In this document: piece by piece, positions 1-43,282 of the stretch | How positions within the stretch are numbered: the stretch's first letter is position 1 | Layout of the letters: each line of letters opens with the position of its first letter | DNA from: a virus | Reading direction: 5' to 3' (one strand) | Length of the DNA: 64,000 nucleotides | Virus record (IMG/VR): IMGVR_UViG_3300030339_000006 | Position numbers and translations under genes: made by a program | Notes under the pieces: generated by a model | The model's database searches: none | The model's input: the letters and a program-made list of their open reading frames with translations, nothing else | Told to the model about the DNA's origin: nothing

Positions 1-6
1 ATAAAG

Positions 7-807
7 ATGGTCGAGTTCTATGGCCGTTTGATACCGACCGTGAAGTACCCTGATTCCAACGACCTGGCCGTCGTGATCGATGACATCATCGTTCAGCTCG
101 GTCTGCAGGATTGGAAGGACGAGTTGATGCAACGTGCTCTGTATGACACGAAGTTTCTGGCTCAGTTAATCAACATCGAAGACGGTCCTGGCCAGCAGTT
201 GGTGGTCATTCCGTTGCACAAACTGAACGCGTACCTGTACTCTATCCGTATTCGCAAAGATGATGACCTGTGGTTCAAACAGGAAGTGATCGACGCGATG
301 ACCGGTGAAGTGAAAGAAGAGACCGTCAACCTGCGTGAAAACCTGATTCGCTATCAGGACGAATGCTCGATGGCATTGCACTCTTACTGGACCAACGGTA
401 TTGCGATTAACCCTAATGCCAACTCCCCCTTCGCGGCGCTCGGCTCGCTCTGGCGTACTGCCCGAATGAACCTGACCACTGTGATTGCTCGCTTCTCGGA
501 GTTCGCAGAAACGACCGGTGAGGACTTCCCCGAAAAGACTGTTCAGCGTGGCATCAACATCCTGCTGAAGGAATTTCTGCCGGCCCAGCTGGTGGATGAA
601 CCGGAACTGTCAAACAACGGGTATGACCTGTACCGTCTGGCTCTGGCTGAAGACTACATCGCCCGCTACCTGAATAACTGTATCGTAACCAAAGATTCAC
701 CGACGCATTGCTTCACCCAGTTGGATGCCGACATGGTCGTCGCGTTCCACTCGATTGCCTCGGGCTTGCTCGAAGCGGTAAACAACTGGAACATCCCCAC
801 TCGATAA
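7..807 (+). CDS. P22 antirepressor N-terminal (P22_AR_N)-like DNA-binding protein, possibly 5'-truncated
   Basis: VEFYG..., LGL.W, IPLHKLNAYLYSI, LIRYQDEC..ALHSYW.NGIAINP motif typical of P22_AR_N. Confidence 0.75.
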   Translation: MVEFYGRLIPTVKYPDSNDLAVVIDDIIVQLGLQDWKDELMQRALYDTKFLAQLINIEDGPGQQLVVIPLHKLNAYLYSIRIRKDDDLWFKQEVIDAMTGEVKEETVNLRENLIRYQDECSMALHSYWTNGIAINPNANSPFAALGSLWRTARMNLTTVIARFSEFAETTGEDFPEKTVQRGINILLKEFLPAQLVDEPELSNNGYDLYRLALAEDYIARYLNNCIVTKDSPTHCFTQLDADMVVAFHSIASGLLEAVNNWNIPTR

Positions 808-820
808 TCTGCGGATTACC

Positions 821-828
821 GGTATAAG
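821..828 (+). promoter_or_regulatory. GGTATAAG phage promoter motif
   Basis: One of ~14 intergenic copies located upstream of genes. Confidence 0.65.
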
Positions 829-872
829 AGACCTGAGGGACAGTTCCGTCCCTCTTATTCTTAGGAGTTATT

Positions 873-1646
873 ATGTCTACCCATTTCCTGTTAAAAGAGA
901 TCCACCGTGTAACCGTCCTCGGCACCGTAATTGAAATCCTCGGTGATGATAAAGGTCAACCAATGGTGCCGATTCGTTCACTCTGTGACGCGATCGGTAC
1001 GGTATACGGTGATGAATTCGCTCGTCTGCGTAGCGACCGCCGCCTGGGCGCCTATAGCATTCGTCTGCGTGCTGAAACGGATCCAGTGGACATCGTCTGC
1101 GTGCCGTTAACCAAACTGCATGCGTTCCTGTACACCATGAATCCGGACGCTCTGGACAGCGTGGCCCGTGCCAAACTGGAAATGTTCCAGGACGAGTGCG
1201 TTGACGTTCTGAACGATTACTGGAACAAAGGCATTGCGATTAACGATCGTGAAGAACGTGGTAGCACTGAAGGCAGCAAATTCCGTGATGCTCGTAAGCT
1301 GTCCCGCCCAGCGTTGGTCGAAGCGGTTAAGCGTCTGACGGCGTACGCAGCGACTACCGGTGTCGAACTGGATCCGGACGACGTGTATCACCACTTGATC
1401 ACTTTCTGCTGGGATCGTCTGGGCCGCAACCCGATGAAGTCCGAGTATGAAGAGATCGACACCAATACTCACGGTGCAGACTCCTACTTCCTGGCTCTGA
1501 TGGAACGTACGGCCGTCAAGTTGATCGATGTGGTTATCCAGGAAGGTTACCAGGTCAGTGATGTCATCAACTACCTCGGTGAAAACATCGACGTGGAACT
1601 GGCCAAACTGACTGAACGTGGATTCGAGCTGCTGGAAGCGAAGTAA
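873..1646 (+). CDS. P22_AR_N-like DNA-binding protein
   Basis: PMVPIRSLCDAIG, CVPLTKLHAFLYTMNP, FQDECVDVLNDYWNKGIAIN; AGGAG RBS. Confidence 0.8.
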   Translation: MSTHFLLKEIHRVTVLGTVIEILGDDKGQPMVPIRSLCDAIGTVYGDEFARLRSDRRLGAYSIRLRAETDPVDIVCVPLTKLHAFLYTMNPDALDSVARAKLEMFQDECVDVLNDYWNKGIAINDREERGSTEGSKFRDARKLSRPALVEAVKRLTAYAATTGVELDPDDVYHHLITFCWDRLGRNPMKSEYEEIDTNTHGADSYFLALMERTAVKLIDVVIQEGYQVSDVINYLGENIDVELAKLTERGFELLEAK

Positions 1647-1652
1647 CAAAAC

Positions 1653-1670
1653 GGGACCCTTCGGGGTCCC
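1653..1670 (+). terminator. hairpin GGGACCC-TTCG-GGGTCCC
   Basis: UUCG tetraloop stem just after stop. Confidence 0.55.
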
Positions 1671-1702
1671 TATCCTAACTGAATTTCTCTATTTGAGGTT
1701 GT

Positions 1703-2491
1703 ATGAAACTGATTGATTTTTATGGCGATACTCTTGAAGTCGTCGAAATGGAAGGTGGTCCCGGTGTTACTGCTCGTCGTCTGGTCGAGAACCTGGGGTT
1801 AGAATGGTCTGGTCAGTTAAAGAAACTGGAAGATCCTATCTACGCTTGTGTACATATGTACACAACTGGATCTGACGACAAGAAGTATGAAATGATGGTC
1901 ATGCCTGTGAAGTCTCTGCCGGCTTTCCTCTTCTCGATTAACCCGAAGAAAGTCCGTGAAGACCTGCGTGAGAAACTGGCCCACTATCGTCTGGAGTGTG
2001 TGGACGTGCTATACCAGTACTGGGCAAAAGGCTACGCGATTAACCCTCGGCCGACGGTAGAATCCTCCCTGGAAGACTATCTGAGCGGTACCGGTAAGGC
2101 CCACTACGCGTTCCTGGACAGCATGCTGGAGTCCGAGTGCAACGGTCCAGAGCATCGTTCCGCGATGGCGAAGGTCATTGAGCGTATTCTGAGTGAAGCA
2201 CTCGAAGTTGAAGAAGTTGATATCGAGCGTAACTTCGTGCACCGCAAGCAGGGTTGGGTCTGCATGAGTCCTGTGGAAATCACTGTGGTTCAAGCAGTCG
2301 AATCAGAGATTGGCCTGTACTTCGCCAAGAACGGCGTGCCGGCTAATGCAGAAGGTGTCATGGAAATGGGTCAGCAGGTTGGCCGTAAAGTGACAAGCCG
2401 TCTGCGTAAAGCGATGTTCATCTCTGAGACATTCTCTGAGAAGTTTGAGACGTCTTTGTTCGAGTTGCTGGGCATGAAAGAAACGGCTTGA
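1703..2491 (+). CDS. P22_AR_N-like DNA-binding protein
   Basis: IDFYGDTL, RLVENLGLEWSGQLKKL, DDKKYEM, FLFSINPKKV, YRLECVDVLYQYW. Confidence 0.85.
   Translation: MKLIDFYGDTLEVVEMEGGPGVTARRLVENLGLEWSGQLKKLEDPIYACVHMYTTGSDDKKYEMMVMPVKSLPAFLFSINPKKVREDLREKLAHYRLECVDVLYQYWAKGYAINPRPTVESSLEDYLSGTGKAHYAFLDSMLESECNGPEHRSAMAKVIERILSEALEVEEVDIERNFVHRKQGWVCMSPVEITVVQAVESEIGLYFAKNGVPANAEGVMEMGQQVGRKVTSRLRKAMFISETFSEKFETSLFELLGMKETA
1846..1865. repeat. perfect 20-bp palindrome TTGTGTACATATGTACACAA inside CDS
   Basis: Directly visible; encodes CVHMYT. Confidence 0.9.
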
Positions 2492-2493
2492 TG

Positions 2494-2582
2494 CGTTCTG
2501 GTACCAGAACACGTGGTTTGAAGTAAGCATTCGTACACATATGTGTACACGTGGTCAGTCGTTCTGGTATCGGAACGACTGA
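2494..2582. repeat. array of three CGT-[12-bp palindrome]-AC(A/G) units
   Basis: Units at 2494, 2532, 2560; first two followed by CGTGGT. Confidence 0.8.
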
Positions 2583-2587
2583 AAACA

Positions 2588-2613
2588 AAGAGGGCTCCCG
2601 AAGGAGCCCTCTT
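2588..2613. terminator. bidirectional terminator hairpin between convergent genes
   Basis: AAGAGGGCTC...GAGCCCTCTT. Confidence 0.65.
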
Positions 2614-2626
2614 AAAGCCGAATCAA

Positions 2627-2902
2627 TTACGCGTTTACAGCGTCTTTGAAGCTACGGCCAGAGCGGAAGTGTGGAGCTTTGCGAGCTTCGATGGTCAGAG
2701 CTTCGCCGGTCTGTGGGTTACGACCATTACGCTCAGCACGATCGCGGCTTGAGAAAGTACCGAAGCCAGTAATACCAACAGTTTCGCCTGCAGAGACTTT
2801 TTCAACTACCAGATCCAGTGCAGCATTCAGTACTGCAGCAACGCGAGTTTTTGGTACTTCCAGAGTTTCAGCTACTTGTGCGATCAATTCAGATTTGTTC
2901 AT
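2627..2902 (-). CDS. hup: HU-family histone-like DNA-binding protein
   Basis: MNKSELIAQVA...GFGTF...RAERNGRNPQTGE...P.F..G..FKDAVN; GAGG RBS before ATG 2902. Confidence 0.95.
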   Translation of the reverse strand: MNKSELIAQVAETLEVPKTRVAAVLNAALDLVVEKVSAGETVGITGFGTFSSRDRAERNGRNPQTGEALTIEARKAPHFRSGRSFKDAVNA

Positions 2903-2967
2903 GGGTGGTTCCTCTTTGTTTGGGTTGAACAGATAGTATATCAAGATAAAGCCAGGCGCAAGCCTTT

Positions 2968-3657
2968 TTGGAGAATTTTATGGAAATTACTAAAATTTAT
3001 GCTGCAGTGAAAGATCTTGGGGTGGAACCGATCGTTGTTATCCCCTTGGGCGAATGCTACGGAGAGTCCTTCGGGTTCGGCCGAGTGAAGTACTCCGTCG
3101 TCTACCTGGAGTCACCAATGAAGGTGCTCTACGGTGGCGGACTGCCGAAGGCCCACTTCACGGTGGACGGGGTGGACATCAAGTTGATTCGCTACGCCGC
3201 TTTCATTCAGCATTGCCTCAGTGGCACTCAGGGTTACGCCCAGCAGTTGTTTATGAAGACCGATCACTTCAACGAGTACTGGGAGAACATCCAGGATCAC
3301 CGCGATACCTTTATGAGCTCCCGCCAGACGATCCAGGAGTCGATCAACCACATCGACCACGGCCTCATGAGCCAGACCCTCCTGCTCTCCCGCCACATCC
3401 TCCGCAAGACTGAAGCCCTCCTGCAGTTCTGGGAGACGGGCGACATCGACTTCCTCTCCCTGAAAGACTGTTTAGTCCCACCCGAAGAGATCGACGGCAT
3501 GCTGAATCTGCACCGCGGTAAGCTTCGAGAGCTGCTGCACCTGTCCGAAGAGCTCGACGTGACACGTTTCGGAACTTTGGTACTTGGGCCGTATCGCGAT
3601 ATGTTCCAAGATAAGTGCAGGCAAACCAGTGACTTACGCGATTTTGTGACATTGTGA
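2968..3657 (+). CDS. degenerate nucleotidyltransferase-like protein
   Basis: YG.S.G...Y..VY...P..VL and D...Y..FI...L.G.....Q.LF spacing resembles phage/YcgL NTases; catalytic DxD absent. Confidence 0.35.
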   Translation: MENFMEITKIYAAVKDLGVEPIVVIPLGECYGESFGFGRVKYSVVYLESPMKVLYGGGLPKAHFTVDGVDIKLIRYAAFIQHCLSGTQGYAQQLFMKTDHFNEYWENIQDHRDTFMSSRQTIQESINHIDHGLMSQTLLLSRHILRKTEALLQFWETGDIDFLSLKDCLVPPEEIDGMLNLHRGKLRELLHLSEELDVTRFGTLVLGPYRDMFQDKCRQTSDLRDFVTL

Positions 3658-3812
3658 CATCGGAACATGGAAAAGTCACCCCTTTTAAGAACATCTTACC
3701 CCTATACATACATTACTATGGATTCAAAATAAGGTATATATAGGATACTACCTACTCGATAGGGATAAAGGGGGTGTGTGTTTAGAGACGTAGTTCCTGT
3801 CACAATGTCACA
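3645..3812. repeat. 168-bp non-coding element with inverted TGTGACATTGTGACA ends (copy 1); origin-like
   Basis: Highly similar to 43115-43282, same length, AT-rich core. Confidence 0.85.
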
Positions 3813-20117: not shown

Positions 20118-20193
20118 GCCTGAGTAGCTGAGCGGTTGTAGCGGGAGCCTCTAAAACTCTGATACGTCGGTTCGAATCCGACCTCGGGCACCA
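20118..20193 (+). tRNA. amber suppressor tRNA (anticodon CUA)
   Basis: GCCTGAG/CTCGGGC acceptor, GGAGC-CT-CTA-AA-ACTCT, GTCGG-TTCGAAT-CCGAC, ACCA. Confidence 0.85.
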
Positions 20194-33998: not shown

Positions 33999-34613
33999 AT
34001 GAAATTAAGCTTGAAGATTGCAACCCTCCCGACCACCATGGTCGATTACTACCTGGAAAAGACCGAAGTACTGCAGGACACACTCTTGGCGGAAGAGGCG
34101 AATCTCTCACCGGAAGATCTTCGTCAACTGATCGGTATCGCTAACGCGGCCGTCGTGAAGAAGACCTTAGCCGAGCATCTGCCGGCCATTACGGAATCAG
34201 GCTTCTTCCAGGGTATCACTTCCTGGGAACGCTATGAAGTCGAATGGACCGACGAGCTCCGCTTCCTGTATTTCTATGAAGTGTTCCACGGTTGTCTGGT
34301 CAGAACGCTCGCCGAAGATCAGCTCGCCGGCCGTCGTGACATCAAGGGCACCGTAGAACGCTTCCGCGATATGCATGACCTTCGGGTGGCGTCAGAAGTA
34401 TCCCTGTCACTTAAGGACGTTCCAGAGGGTGTTGCCTCTCGCCTGCGAGCAACGGTGGAGGAAGTCAGTCGCGTGAACGTCGGGACGATGCTCGGGGATA
34501 CCAACTACAACATCTGGAAGGCGTTGGACTACTCGACTCAGGCCGGCAGTACTCTGGAAGGTCTCGAACCGCTGCTCCGCAAGTTAAACCCGATGCAGTT
34601 CGTTCTGGCATGA
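33999..34613 (+). CDS. hypothetical protein
   Basis: GGTATAAG at 33964, AGGAG RBS. Confidence 0.7.
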   Translation: MKLSLKIATLPTTMVDYYLEKTEVLQDTLLAEEANLSPEDLRQLIGIANAAVVKKTLAEHLPAITESGFFQGITSWERYEVEWTDELRFLYFYEVFHGCLVRTLAEDQLAGRRDIKGTVERFRDMHDLRVASEVSLSLKDVPEGVASRLRATVEEVSRVNVGTMLGDTNYNIWKALDYSTQAGSTLEGLEPLLRKLNPMQFVLA

Positions 34614-34957
34614 GCGTAGTATCGTCCAGGGAGAGTACCTTCTTCGGTGACTATCTGGAAGTCATCACCGACCACACCTCAGGAATGACTTACGTCAAAG
34701 CTAAAAGCCTGTGTAAGGTCTTGGGAATAGCCTGGCAAAGCCAGAGCACTAAGTTATCCGAGGATATCTACGGTCGTTATCGTAGTTTCTTCGGGAGTGC
34801 ACTCGGCCCGGGCGGTAAGAAGTATCGCTATGTCATGCTTCCGGTAGATACCCTCAAGCATTTTCTTGAAGACATCAACTTAAAGAACCTTGATCGAGAT
34901 ACCGCCAAGAAACTGGCAGACATCCGTGAAAGATTCACCGGGCCTAACTGCTTGTAA
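34610..34957 (+). CDS. P22_AR_N-like domain protein
   Basis: FFGDYL, YV..KSLCKVLGIAW.SQ..KL, GKKY...MLP. Confidence 0.75.
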   Translation: MSVVSSRESTFFGDYLEVITDHTSGMTYVKAKSLCKVLGIAWQSQSTKLSEDIYGRYRSFFGSALGPGGKKYRYVMLPVDTLKHFLEDINLKNLDRDTAKKLADIRERFTGPNCL

Positions 34958-34965
34958 CCAAAAAG

Positions 34966-35049
34966 ATTCAGGTATGGAGATCCCTCTAACCCTTCAAGTA
35001 TGACGATATCGTTACACTTGAATGGCTTGTCATTTGACAATACCTGAAT
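34966..35049. repeat. nested palindromic intergenic element
   Basis: ATTCAGGTAT...ATACCTGAAT enclosing TTCAAGT-ATGACGATATCGTTAC-ACTTGAA and TTGTCA-TT-TGACAA. Confidence 0.7.
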
Positions 35050-35106
35050 TCCCACCCCATCTGGTATAAGAACAGTGTAATCCCACTGTAGCTATAGAGG
35101 TTTCTA

Positions 35107-36030
35107 ATGAACAAAGTCAGTAAAGTGAATTTCTTCGGTGAAGACATTATCGTAATCGATTGTGAAGTAAAAGTTGCGGGTAAGACTGAGCACGTGCTAG
35201 GTGTTCCTGCAAAGCGTTTAGTTGAACAGTTGGGATTGGCGTGGCCGTCACAGCATGCAAAATTGATGGATGACGAAGATAACCGTTATGGCGTATTTGA
35301 AGCTCCACTGATCTCTCCAAATGGCAAGACTTACGATTCCCTGGTGATTCCTTACACGGCACTGAATGCATTCCTGTTCAGTATCAACCGTAAGAACCTG
35401 CCGGAGAAGATGATTCAGACAGAACTGTCCGGCGGCGGGATCCGTGAGGAAACCATCAAGCAGAAAATCATCCGTTATCAGGATGAATGTCAGTTAGTGC
35501 TGCATGATTATTGGACCCACGGTGCTGCGATCAATCTGCGTTCTAACTTCGCTGACGCGGAAGCCCAGAAGAACTATGACATCCTCGAAACGTCTCGTAA
35601 GCGTTATGAGAACATGTTCAATGGCCTGGTGCAGAACATCGTTGACTCTCAGGGTAAACGTGGTGAAGACTTCGAGCGTGGCGTGATTGAGTTTGCGGGC
35701 GTACTGGAAGAGCAGGTTCTGGAAGTCATCATGACCTGTATGGGTGCGGCTGAACTGGATACTCAGGCGATGACCATCCGTAAGCCAGGGGAAGCCGGTA
35801 AGCGTTATCTGACCGGTATGGAAGCGATCTATATCAGCATTCTGCAGAACTGTTTCTGTGACTTGATCGGTCTGTTCCGTCGTAAAGAGATCGGCGACGG
35901 TCGTAACTACGAAGCCATCCTCGATGAACTGCCGAAATACTTCGACGACTATCTGAGCAACGTCAATCGAGACGTCCTGATGATGCGTAACACGTTCAAC
36001 CGTGGTCGTGGTCTGTTCGCTCCAAACTAA
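35107..36030 (+). CDS. P22_AR_N-like DNA-binding protein
   Basis: VNFFG, RLVEQLGLAWPSQHAKL, FLFSIN, RYQDEC..VLHDYW..GAAIN; promoter at 35063. Confidence 0.85.
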   Translation: MNKVSKVNFFGEDIIVIDCEVKVAGKTEHVLGVPAKRLVEQLGLAWPSQHAKLMDDEDNRYGVFEAPLISPNGKTYDSLVIPYTALNAFLFSINRKNLPEKMIQTELSGGGIREETIKQKIIRYQDECQLVLHDYWTHGAAINLRSNFADAEAQKNYDILETSRKRYENMFNGLVQNIVDSQGKRGEDFERGVIEFAGVLEEQVLEVIMTCMGAAELDTQAMTIRKPGEAGKRYLTGMEAIYISILQNCFCDLIGLFRRKEIGDGRNYEAILDELPKYFDDYLSNVNRDVLMMRNTFNRGRGLFAPN

Positions 36031-43114: not shown

Positions 43115-43282
43115 TGTGACATTGTTACATCGGAACGTCTCCAACCCACCCTTATTAGAGACATCTTACCCCTATACATACATTACTATGGATCTTAAAT
43201 AAGGTATATATAGGATGCTACTACCCTCTAGGGGATAAAGGGGGTGTGTGTTTGGAGACGTAGTTCCTGTCACAATGTCACA
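43115..43282. repeat. 168-bp inverted-iteron element (copy 2)
   Basis: Near copy of 3645-3812. Confidence 0.85.

Follow-up and report, generated by a model that had tools for sequence, protein, structure and literature searches.

In the P22_AR_N-family gene at positions 1703–2491 of IMG/VR virus record IMGVR_UViG_3300030339_000006, a 64,000-nucleotide stretch of phage DNA referred to here as the window, codons 49–54 lie within a perfect 20-bp palindrome. Homologous genes of many phages and prophages, among them the ant gene of phage P22, have a palindrome at the same codons with different arms. The two arms change together, the selection acts on nucleotides, and the arms are associated with exposed residues of a helix encoded about ten codons upstream. 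We give an even chance to the reading that the P22_AR_N domain, a predicted winged helix, binds as a dimer to a two-fold symmetric site inside or beside the gene that encodes it, reader and site forming one module of about 90 nt. The features on which this reading rests are the following.

1703–2491, plus strand: P22_AR_N-family gene (Pfam PF10547), 262 aa, last of three tandem paralogues
1802–1828, plus strand: codons 34–42 (E-W-S-G-Q-L-K-K-L), predicted second helix of a helix-turn-helix (AlphaFold2 helix 35–42), proposed recognition helix
1843–1868, unstranded: in-gene palindrome in the 26-nt frame of the family (perfect 20 bp at 1846–1865), encoding the first β-hairpin strand, residues 50–55

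A palindrome at one codon position of the P22_AR_N family

The product of gene 1703–2491 matches PF10547 (P22_AR_N) over residues 4–112 with 114.2 bits (cut-off 30.7) and E 4.9e-33. Codons 49–54 are TGT GTA CAT ATG TAC ACA (CVHMYT) and are enclosed by the palindrome at 1846–1865, as the original prediction, made from the sequence alone, had stated. The three longest perfect palindromes of the window (20, 16 and 16 bp) all fall within 1846–2548, about 700 bp; the Markov-shuffle expectation per window is 0.61 palindromes of 16 bp and 0.05 of 20 bp. Elsewhere in the window the in-gene 18-mer does not recur at up to three mismatches (expectation 0.00).

The nearest named relative of the window phage is Salmonella phage Arash, whose gp139 has 57% protein identity to the window protein. 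DNA identity between the two genes is high over the N-terminal region and collapses at gene nt 141–190. The codons in question form a perfect palindrome in Arash too, but of another sequence, GTTCTGATATCAGAAC. Eleven distinct Arash-like orthologue DNAs were compared (the window, two Arash copies, four IMG/VR genomes and four metagenome contigs), and all 11 are palindromic at these codons with differing arms (GTA/TAC, TCT/AGA, TGT/ACA, GGT/ACC, TGC/GCA, TCC/GGA, ACC/GGT and GTT/AAC). The only helix that RNAalifold finds in the 120-nt alignment is the in-gene palindrome, with six pairs changed on both sides. Standard pairs occupy 90.9% of the cells in this set, compared with 65.8% after shuffling (0 of 500 shuffles reach the observed value), and controls in which the partner was slid by 1–3 columns are 22–52% paired.

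The pattern extends to more distant proteins. In 64 close homologues the hexapeptide reads C-x1-x2-x3-x4-T, where x1/x4 and x2/x3 correspond to reverse-complement codon pairs (V/Y, S/R, R/P, G/T, T/C and C/A; also H/M, D/I and V/N); the arms of most of these homologues (P0002, P0003, P0008 and others) are known from protein only. The same hexapeptide motif is widespread among representatives from a search of 1.8 billion proteins, in which P22_AR_N/Bro-N accounts for 4,993 cluster representatives at E ≤0.001. A protein-only test used 100 distinct decapeptides selected by the Cys alone, with no filter for pairing. Positions x1/x4 are fully reverse-complement-compatible in 80% of them, against 30% ± 4% after shuffling; the corresponding values are 61% and 31% for x2/x3, and 74% and 36% for the flanking N..V position. 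The original prediction had proposed aligning homologues at the DNA level, and in this comparison the same segment is indeed palindromic and hypervariable, with variants that match the arm types of the units downstream of the window gene.

In P22 ant the palindrome at the same codons is CAACTATGTCGAT-ATCGACATGGTTG (L043, 1638–1663). Palindromes of 24–26 nt are present there in P22 ant, phage N7, Cronobacter phage ES2 and Pasteurella phage Pmp3, and about 50 prophage genes from Pasteurellaceae, Enterobacterales, Moraxella, Neisseriaceae and several lineages of metagenome-assembled genomes (MAGs) are palindromic at this place. The prophage genomes were scanned with a 12-sequence alignment as query, and the genes found were not pre-filtered for pairing. 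The palindrome is absent in the motif-less family members 933W, StAB, BatStarr and NrS-3. Pseudomonas phage UFJF_PfDIW6 (L047, 1139–1173) has no Cys, yet a palindrome of 27 nt whose centre is odd (TTGTCAT-G-ATGACAA) occupies this position, so the element reaches beyond the Cys subfamily.

A set of 57 distinct sequences, from which the window was excluded and which was pre-filtered for at least 10 of 13 pairs, has 91.0% of cells paired versus 70.8% ± 1.1% in shuffles. Twelve of its 13 pairs have changed on both sides, and the covariation score is 0.595 versus 0.239. Codon choice is restricted. The Cys codon is TGT in 53 cases and TGC in none, x2 is CAT in 28 and GAT in 17 with no CAC or GAC, and Thr is ACA in 25, ACG in 12, ACT in one and ACC in none. 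The bias between synonymous codons (TGT, CAT/GAT) indicates that the constraint acts on nucleotides.

Two other sequences were seen in or near family genes. Paralogue 1 of Arash and of two relatives has a near-palindrome with a CACGTG centre, GTCGTCCAC-GTGGAAGAC (V-V-H-V-E-D), at the aligned strand position (L021, about 720–740 in reverse-complement orientation; also L031 and L034), which paralogue 1 of the window lacks. Pasteurellaceae prophages have a conserved hairpin, CCTCGATCAGA-AATGGTCGGGG, 5' of their ant-like genes, unrelated in sequence to the in-gene palindrome (L048, 925–946; L089, L090, L092, L094 and L097, at about 460–580).

The helix, the arms and the non-coding copies

The AlphaFold2 model of the 1703–2491 product (predicted local distance difference test score 84.7) has three strands, helices at residues 24–30 and 35–42, and a β-hairpin at 50–55/61–68. 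Structural matches to its N-domain are the N-terminal domain of CpGV Orf22 (4YE7, Z 9.1), DdrC (7QVB, Z 8.1), Mbp1 (1BM8, Z 6.6) and Bqt4 (5YC2, Z 6.4). The alignment to 4ye7_B covers 95 residues with a root-mean-square deviation of 3.4; the N-terminal domain of DdrC gives Z 6.1, and Foldseek finds DdrC at E 2e-4. Sequence identity to the solved structural matches is only 7–13%. As modeled, the N-domain is a winged helix of the Bro-N/KilA-N/APSES type, a DNA-binding kind of fold, which by itself is no proof of DNA binding.

Coupling between positions was analyzed in 107 distinct motif-bearing domains. Residue x1 is coupled to helix columns 34, 36, 37, 39 and 40 (z 13.3, 15.0, 10.2, 7.3 and 7.9) and to its palindrome partner x4 (z 15). 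It is uncoupled from the nearer linker, residues 43–48 (z 0.8–5.7), and from the turn, residues 55–63 (z 1.3–3.4), columns whose entropy is similar to that of the helix columns. The coupling partners of residue x2 are x3 (z 16) and residue 37 (z 15), and the outer pair 48/55 is coupled to itself (z 13) and uncoupled from the helix. Between different background clusters (<60% identity outside the region), the probability of sharing residues 36/37 is 0.356 given the same arms versus 0.025, and for linker or turn residues the sharing ratio given the same arms is 0–1.2. Helix coupling is at background (z 2–6) in non-palindromic family members. The recurring combinations of arm and helix are these.

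Arms GGT/ACC: helix K-[STV]-Q-[HYS]-[RKA]-K-L, in 8 lineages
Arms TG[CT]: helix A-S-Q-[ST]-V-K-L
Arms AGA: helix x-G-Q
Arms GTT and ATT: helix mostly x-T-Q

The eight GGT/ACC lineages (Morganella, a SAR324 MAG, Volucribacter, Rodentibacter, Martelella, Rosenbergiella, an Arash-like phage and a Pasteurella phage) have synonymously drifted helix codons and unrelated linkers. This argues against recent transfer of a contiguous block and against RNA pairing of helix codons with the arms, an idea that we rejected on the same drift of the helix codons. A recognition helix that reads its half-site would produce such a pattern.

Copies of the element that lie outside coding sequence and beside family genes follow the same helix-to-arm pairing. 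A covariance model built without any window sequence matches the in-gene site at 1839–1872 with 26.0 bits, and its best match in the window is an intergenic palindrome between two other family genes.

34610–34957, plus strand: short P22_AR_N-like gene, 115 aa, helix W-Q-S-Q-S-T-K-L (nt 34733–34756), no in-gene palindrome
34993–35022, unstranded: intergenic family-type palindrome TTCAAGTATGACGAT-ATCGTTACACTTGAA, model match at 34991–35024, 28.1 bits, E 8e-6
35107–36030, plus strand: P22_AR_N-like gene, 307 aa, 3' of the intergenic palindrome, no in-gene palindrome

Among the proteins seen, only P0155 has a helix identical to Q-S-Q-S-T-K-L of gene 34610, and its in-gene site reads T-N-D-I-V-T. 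The intergenic site reads C-N-D-I-V-I, matching the arms of this distant same-helix protein, and it has a counterpart in the relative G004. Moraxella prophages have a second copy between a divergent ribbon-helix-helix gene and the ant-like gene, directly 5' of a sigma-70-like promoter, TTGACT-17-TATCAT. The half-sites of that copy are GGT/GGA, the type paired with the K36 of that protein; the in-gene arms there are GTT/AAC. The non-coding copies have self-complementary centres (GTAC, ATAT, TTAA) and the GT..AC frame with no coding need for either. Further family-type copies were sought in the 600-bp flanks of 68 prophage loci, where only the Moraxella pair was found, plus one at the locus edge of L107. 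A conserved sequence, TGGTATAAG, resembling an extended -10 element, was noticed 5' of the 35107 gene (window 35055–35075) and in two relatives (L030 and L033); it may be the phage group's own promoter type, and GGTATAAG is a candidate promoter sequence elsewhere in the same phage genome.

Three further units of the same geometry follow the stop codon of gene 1703–2491, starting at 2494, 2532 and 2560. The original prediction had described them there, and its translations of them in the same register, RSGTRT, RTHMCT and RSGIGT, are correct.

2494–2516, unstranded: U1, non-coding palindrome, arms TCTGGT/ACCAGA, 3' flank ACACGTGG, weak model match of 8.9 bits
2532–2554, unstranded: U2, non-coding palindrome, arms ACACAT/ATGTGT, 3' flank ACACGTGG, model match of 15 bits
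2556–2581, unstranded: U3, non-coding 26-nt quasi-palindrome CAGTCGTTCTGGT-ATCGGAACGACTG, model match of 24.9 bits, E 8e-5

U1 consists of CGTTCTGGTACCAGAACA followed by CGTGG from 2494, with a perfect 16-mer at 2495–2510, and U2 of CGTACACATATGTGTACA followed by CGTGG from 2532, with a perfect 16-mer at 2533–2548; the flank ACACGTGG is common to both. The core of U3 is CGTTCTGGTATCGGAACG followed by ACTG from 2560, and the unit extended to 2556–2581 has two G:T pairs. All three units lie between the stop codon and a terminator hairpin at 2588–2613. The 3' untranslated region at 2480–2625 folds into U1, U2, U3 and the terminator with −70.4 kcal/mol versus −37.1 ± 3.4 for shuffles (z −9.7), and the in-gene region by itself has ordinary fold stability (z −1.4).

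Only the window has the U1–U3 array. In most relatives the order is stop codon, terminator and HU gene with nothing in between; L004–L007 and L010 have no downstream array, and L011 has one full unit and one half unit. The arm types of U1–U3 (TCT/AGA, ACA/TGT and TCT/GGA) occur in-gene in related phages with the helices G-N..E, S-R..E and S-S..E. From this sequence comparison we suggest that U1–U3 are further sites of the same class, and that a paralogous or foreign member of the family is a likelier reader of them than the local protein. When five related phage genomes were searched for further U1/U3 or U2 cores, the only matches had one mismatch and stood at or near the control level. In L004, at 2440–2500, two degenerate copies of right arm plus flank (CATATGTACACAACTG and TTATGTGCACAACTGG) were seen directly 5' of the orthologue start codon, the second of which provides the GGAG of the ribosome-binding site.

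The remaining features of the locus are as follows.

7–807, plus strand: tandem P22_AR_N paralogue 1, aligned codons without palindrome
873–1646, plus strand: tandem P22_AR_N paralogue 2, aligned codons without palindrome
2588–2613, minus strand: terminator hairpin between the convergent genes, T-run on the minus strand (HU side)
2627–2902, minus strand: HU-like gene (Pfam PF00216, E 6e-31), convergent with 1703–2491, synteny kept in relatives

The hairpin at 2588–2613 is kept in relatives directly 3' of the stop codon of the ant-like gene. A scan of 1–3100 for intrinsic terminators, defined by a GC-rich stem and a T-run, found those at 2588–2613, 1653–1670 and 835–854, and neither the in-gene palindrome nor U1–U3 was of this kind. 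The source phage is large and has 24 tRNA genes, one of which (20118–20193) has the anticodon CTA, an amber reader labeled Pyl by ARAGORN. Two nearly identical copies of a 168-bp element, AT-rich in its core and bounded by inverted TGTGACA doublets, lie 39.5 kb apart, at 3645–3812 and 43115–43282. The element was considered as a relative of the palindromes and rejected, the common content being short words only (ATCGGAAC).

Possible readers of the palindrome

The reading that we favor takes the palindrome as a double-stranded, two-fold symmetric DNA site that would be read by the protein's own N-terminal P22_AR_N domain. Exposed residues 34, 36, 37, 39 and 40 of the second helix would read the inner base pairs of each half-site, and reading of the constant GT..AC together with the central TA would fall to the invariant Q38 and K41. 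With the site about ten codons 3' of the helix-coding sequence, reader and site would travel as a single specificity module. The residues encoded by the site, C-x1-x2-x3-x4-T, would be tolerated passengers in a β-strand. In the wider family the site may sit beside the gene rather than within it, as at 34993–35022 and in the Moraxella copy 5' of the promoter. The palindrome is symmetric about its centre in the full two-fold way that a dimer bound to duplex DNA requires. In the variable arm pairs 4–6, G:T and A:C are equally frequent (10 and 10), which points to duplex symmetry and not to a hairpin loop. We infer that the gene's own product binds the site, and the purpose may be autoregulation, or self-recognition as in the BstA/aba system discussed below.

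The original prediction had proposed that the gene encodes its own operator, coupling the binding site with the recognition residues, and that the units downstream are extra sites. This proposal fits the evidence best, with binding as its predicted part, and one element of it has to be given up. The six residues encoded by the palindrome look like passengers; those that track the arms are the exposed helix residues about ten codons upstream.

Several points weigh against binding by the gene's own product. The pairing statistics of the 57 sequences come from a set filtered at 10 or more of 13 pairs. G:T exceeds A:C overall (72 versus 19 in pairs 3–13) and two of the pairs in U3 are G:T, as in an RNA stem; the excess is mostly found at pairs 8, 9 and 12, where Cys, Met, Thr and Pro codons fix the pairs. 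The arm types of U1–U3 do not fit the window's own S-G..K helix, and the P22 genome has no second copy of the P22 site with fewer than three mismatches. The P22 Ant protein is, to our knowledge, a repressor-binding protein and not a DNA binder. The helix association may possibly be residue-contact co-evolution (36/37 with 50/53) on top of a hairpin.

That last point belongs to the main rival, which we consider fairly unlikely. According to it, the palindrome is a one-strand stem-loop, either an mRNA hairpin or a hairpin or cruciform in the sense DNA, and its reader is some general factor of host or phage, for instance the ribosome, a nuclease or a protein that recognizes the structure; the arms drift compensatorily and the helix residues follow by packing against the arm-encoded strand residues. 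The strong compensatory covariation would suit a hairpin, as would the G:T excess, the Thr codons (ACG 12, ACC/ACT 1), the two G:T pairs of U3, the stable fold of the 3' untranslated region and the frequent mismatches in the central four bases. However, the central two pairs cannot form in a hairpin and are kept all the same (T-A in 57 of 58, A-T/T-A in 51 of 58), with CAT/GAT and never CAC/GAC, and the centres of the non-coding copies are self-complementary. Strand asymmetry is absent from the freely varying arm pairs, the in-gene region is not unusually stable, and the helix coupling falls to background where the palindrome is missing. The non-coding sites obey the helix-arm pairing though they encode no strand residue. 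No Rfam family matches the element; the Rfam covariance models gave three chance-level matches only (E 6.7–9.3), far under their gathering scores.

It is improbable, in our view, that there is no reader at all and that the element is a self-perpetuating quasi-palindrome, in which template switching copies mutations from arm to arm and leaves the flanking copies as debris. Where quasi-palindromes mutate, correction of one arm by the other outpaces point mutation by far, and hybrids that resemble central recombinants exist (ACA CAT-ATG AGA in L010, GTA..TCT in L069 and ACT..AAA in L078). Template switching does not homogenize the bases of the central loop, although conservation is highest there. 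It also leaves unexplained the constant GT..AC frame of the non-coding copies, the association of helix and arm across synonymously drifted lineages, and the retention of the element from P22 to 176-kb myoviruses and MAG prophages.

Quite improbable is an operator for another co-evolving regulator, for example a ribbon-helix-helix repressor of the Arc/Mnt type, encoded beside many ant genes, to which the in-gene site would be auxiliary, as lac O2 and gal OI are. The ant genes of P22, N7 and PfDIW6 have Arc/Mnt-type neighbors, and the second Moraxella copy lies next to a divergent ribbon-helix-helix gene, 5' of the promoter. On the other hand, the P22_AR_N gene is the sole constant companion of the element, no such repressor was seen in the examined part of the window, and the annotated Arc and Mnt operators of P22 are 5' of arc (L043, 1166–1212) and not at the ant palindrome. 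The arms, moreover, co-vary with the helix of the same protein.

The second explanation in the original prediction, that the segment is diversified by the downstream units acting as donor cassettes or hairpins, is not supported; replacement of the in-gene 12–18 nt by gene conversion from these units is very improbable, even though the segment is hypervariable among close relatives (identity is lost at gene nt 141–190 between highly similar flanks), the arm types of the units are found in-gene in relatives, and L004 has two partial copies 5' of the start codon and L011 copies downstream. The array is missing in most relatives, both downstream of the genes in L004–L007 and L010 and at the 68 prophage loci except the Moraxella pair and L107, and homology between unit and gene is confined to the palindrome and 3–5 nt of flank, unlike a diversity-generating retroelement or a silent-donor gene-conversion system. 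Among the neighboring open reading frames that were read, no reverse transcriptase or recombinase was noticed; the whole window was not searched for one. The same helix-arm alleles recur with synonymous drift in unrelated lineages, which indicates selection and not a local copying device.

Some other candidates were rejected by eye: a LexA or CRP box (spacing and key bases misfit, arms variable), a -1 frameshift signal (no in-frame slippery heptamer), translational bypass (the segment undergoes translation and is conserved in part), an invertase site (no open reading frame lies on the reverse strand, and the sites are not alike) and long-range pairing of the in-gene site with U2 (A:C mismatches on one side).

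To return to binding by the gene's own product, a broader form of this reading can be put forward, tentatively and with rather less than an even chance. The whole subfamily would have its own operators inside the sequence of the DNA-binding domain, operators of other specificity in large phages would be cross-regulatory sites or decoys for proteins of rival phages or prophages, and a code from helix residues 34/36/37/39/40 to the half-site could be read from thousands of genes. If the binding is real, P22_AR_N/Bro-N proteins, which are among the commonest unexplained phage proteins, gain a role in sequence-specific DNA binding with self-marked targets, and their genes form a natural data set of reader-site pairs. 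It would also account for the free swapping of a short segment between otherwise similar phages. The observation itself, a palindrome at one codon position tied to a nearby helix, includes a textbook gene, P22 ant. Our literature searches found no description of this palindrome; their coverage was incomplete, so one may exist.

Comparison with known systems

The N-domain has the topology of Mbp1, Bqt4, CpGV Orf22 and DdrC, that is, strands, two helices and a β-hairpin; we know of none among these that carries a site in its own gene. The immI region of P22, with the Arc/Mnt operators and the sar antisense RNA, involves the same family and in P22 the same gene, and there ant is densely controlled. 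All annotated elements of immI are at or before the 5' end of ant; the palindrome at L043 1638–1663 is unannotated in that record.

Intragenic operators and the lambda origin are looser parallels than BstA/aba. The auxiliary operators lac O2 and gal OI are found in genes that do not encode their own repressor. They resemble the P22_AR_N palindrome as palindromic, operator-like sites in a coding region, and the latter sometimes has a promoter-proximal partner (Moraxella), but lac O2 and gal OI are not fixed at one codon position across a protein family. Lambda O with ori and P22 gene 18 are initiator genes that contain sites bound by their own products, and in lambda O-type genes the site and the N-terminal specificity co-vary between phages. 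The proposed binding site within its own coding sequence is common to both cases. In contrast to lambda ori, which has four iterons and an AT-rich region in the linker-coding segment of a replication initiator, the P22_AR_N gene has a single in-gene site (with one good copy in P22) in a structured strand, an unrelated fold and no link to replication.

The nearest precedent is BstA/aba. BstA is a prophage abortive-infection protein with a KilA-N-like domain and a cognate anti-BstA DNA element, aba, which is 63 bp long, spans the start codon, depends on terminal direct CCCGCC repeats and is non-palindromic (bioRxiv 10.1101/2020.07.13.199331). Both systems have a protein domain of the same broad Bro-N/KilA-N kind and, in its own locus, a short DNA element, which is cognate in BstA/aba and proposed to be so here, and we count as a further likeness that in BstA/aba each homologue has its matching element, which acts as DNA. 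Unlike aba, the P22_AR_N site is a palindrome of 16–26 bp amid the domain coding sequence, at codons 47–55 and without terminal direct repeats, and has a readable correspondence of helix to arm; unlike BstA, the P22_AR_N genes considered here are not known to confer a defence or self-immunity phenotype. If the P22_AR_N domain does read the palindrome in its own gene, it extends BstA/aba, the single experimental precedent for a gene-embedded cognate element.

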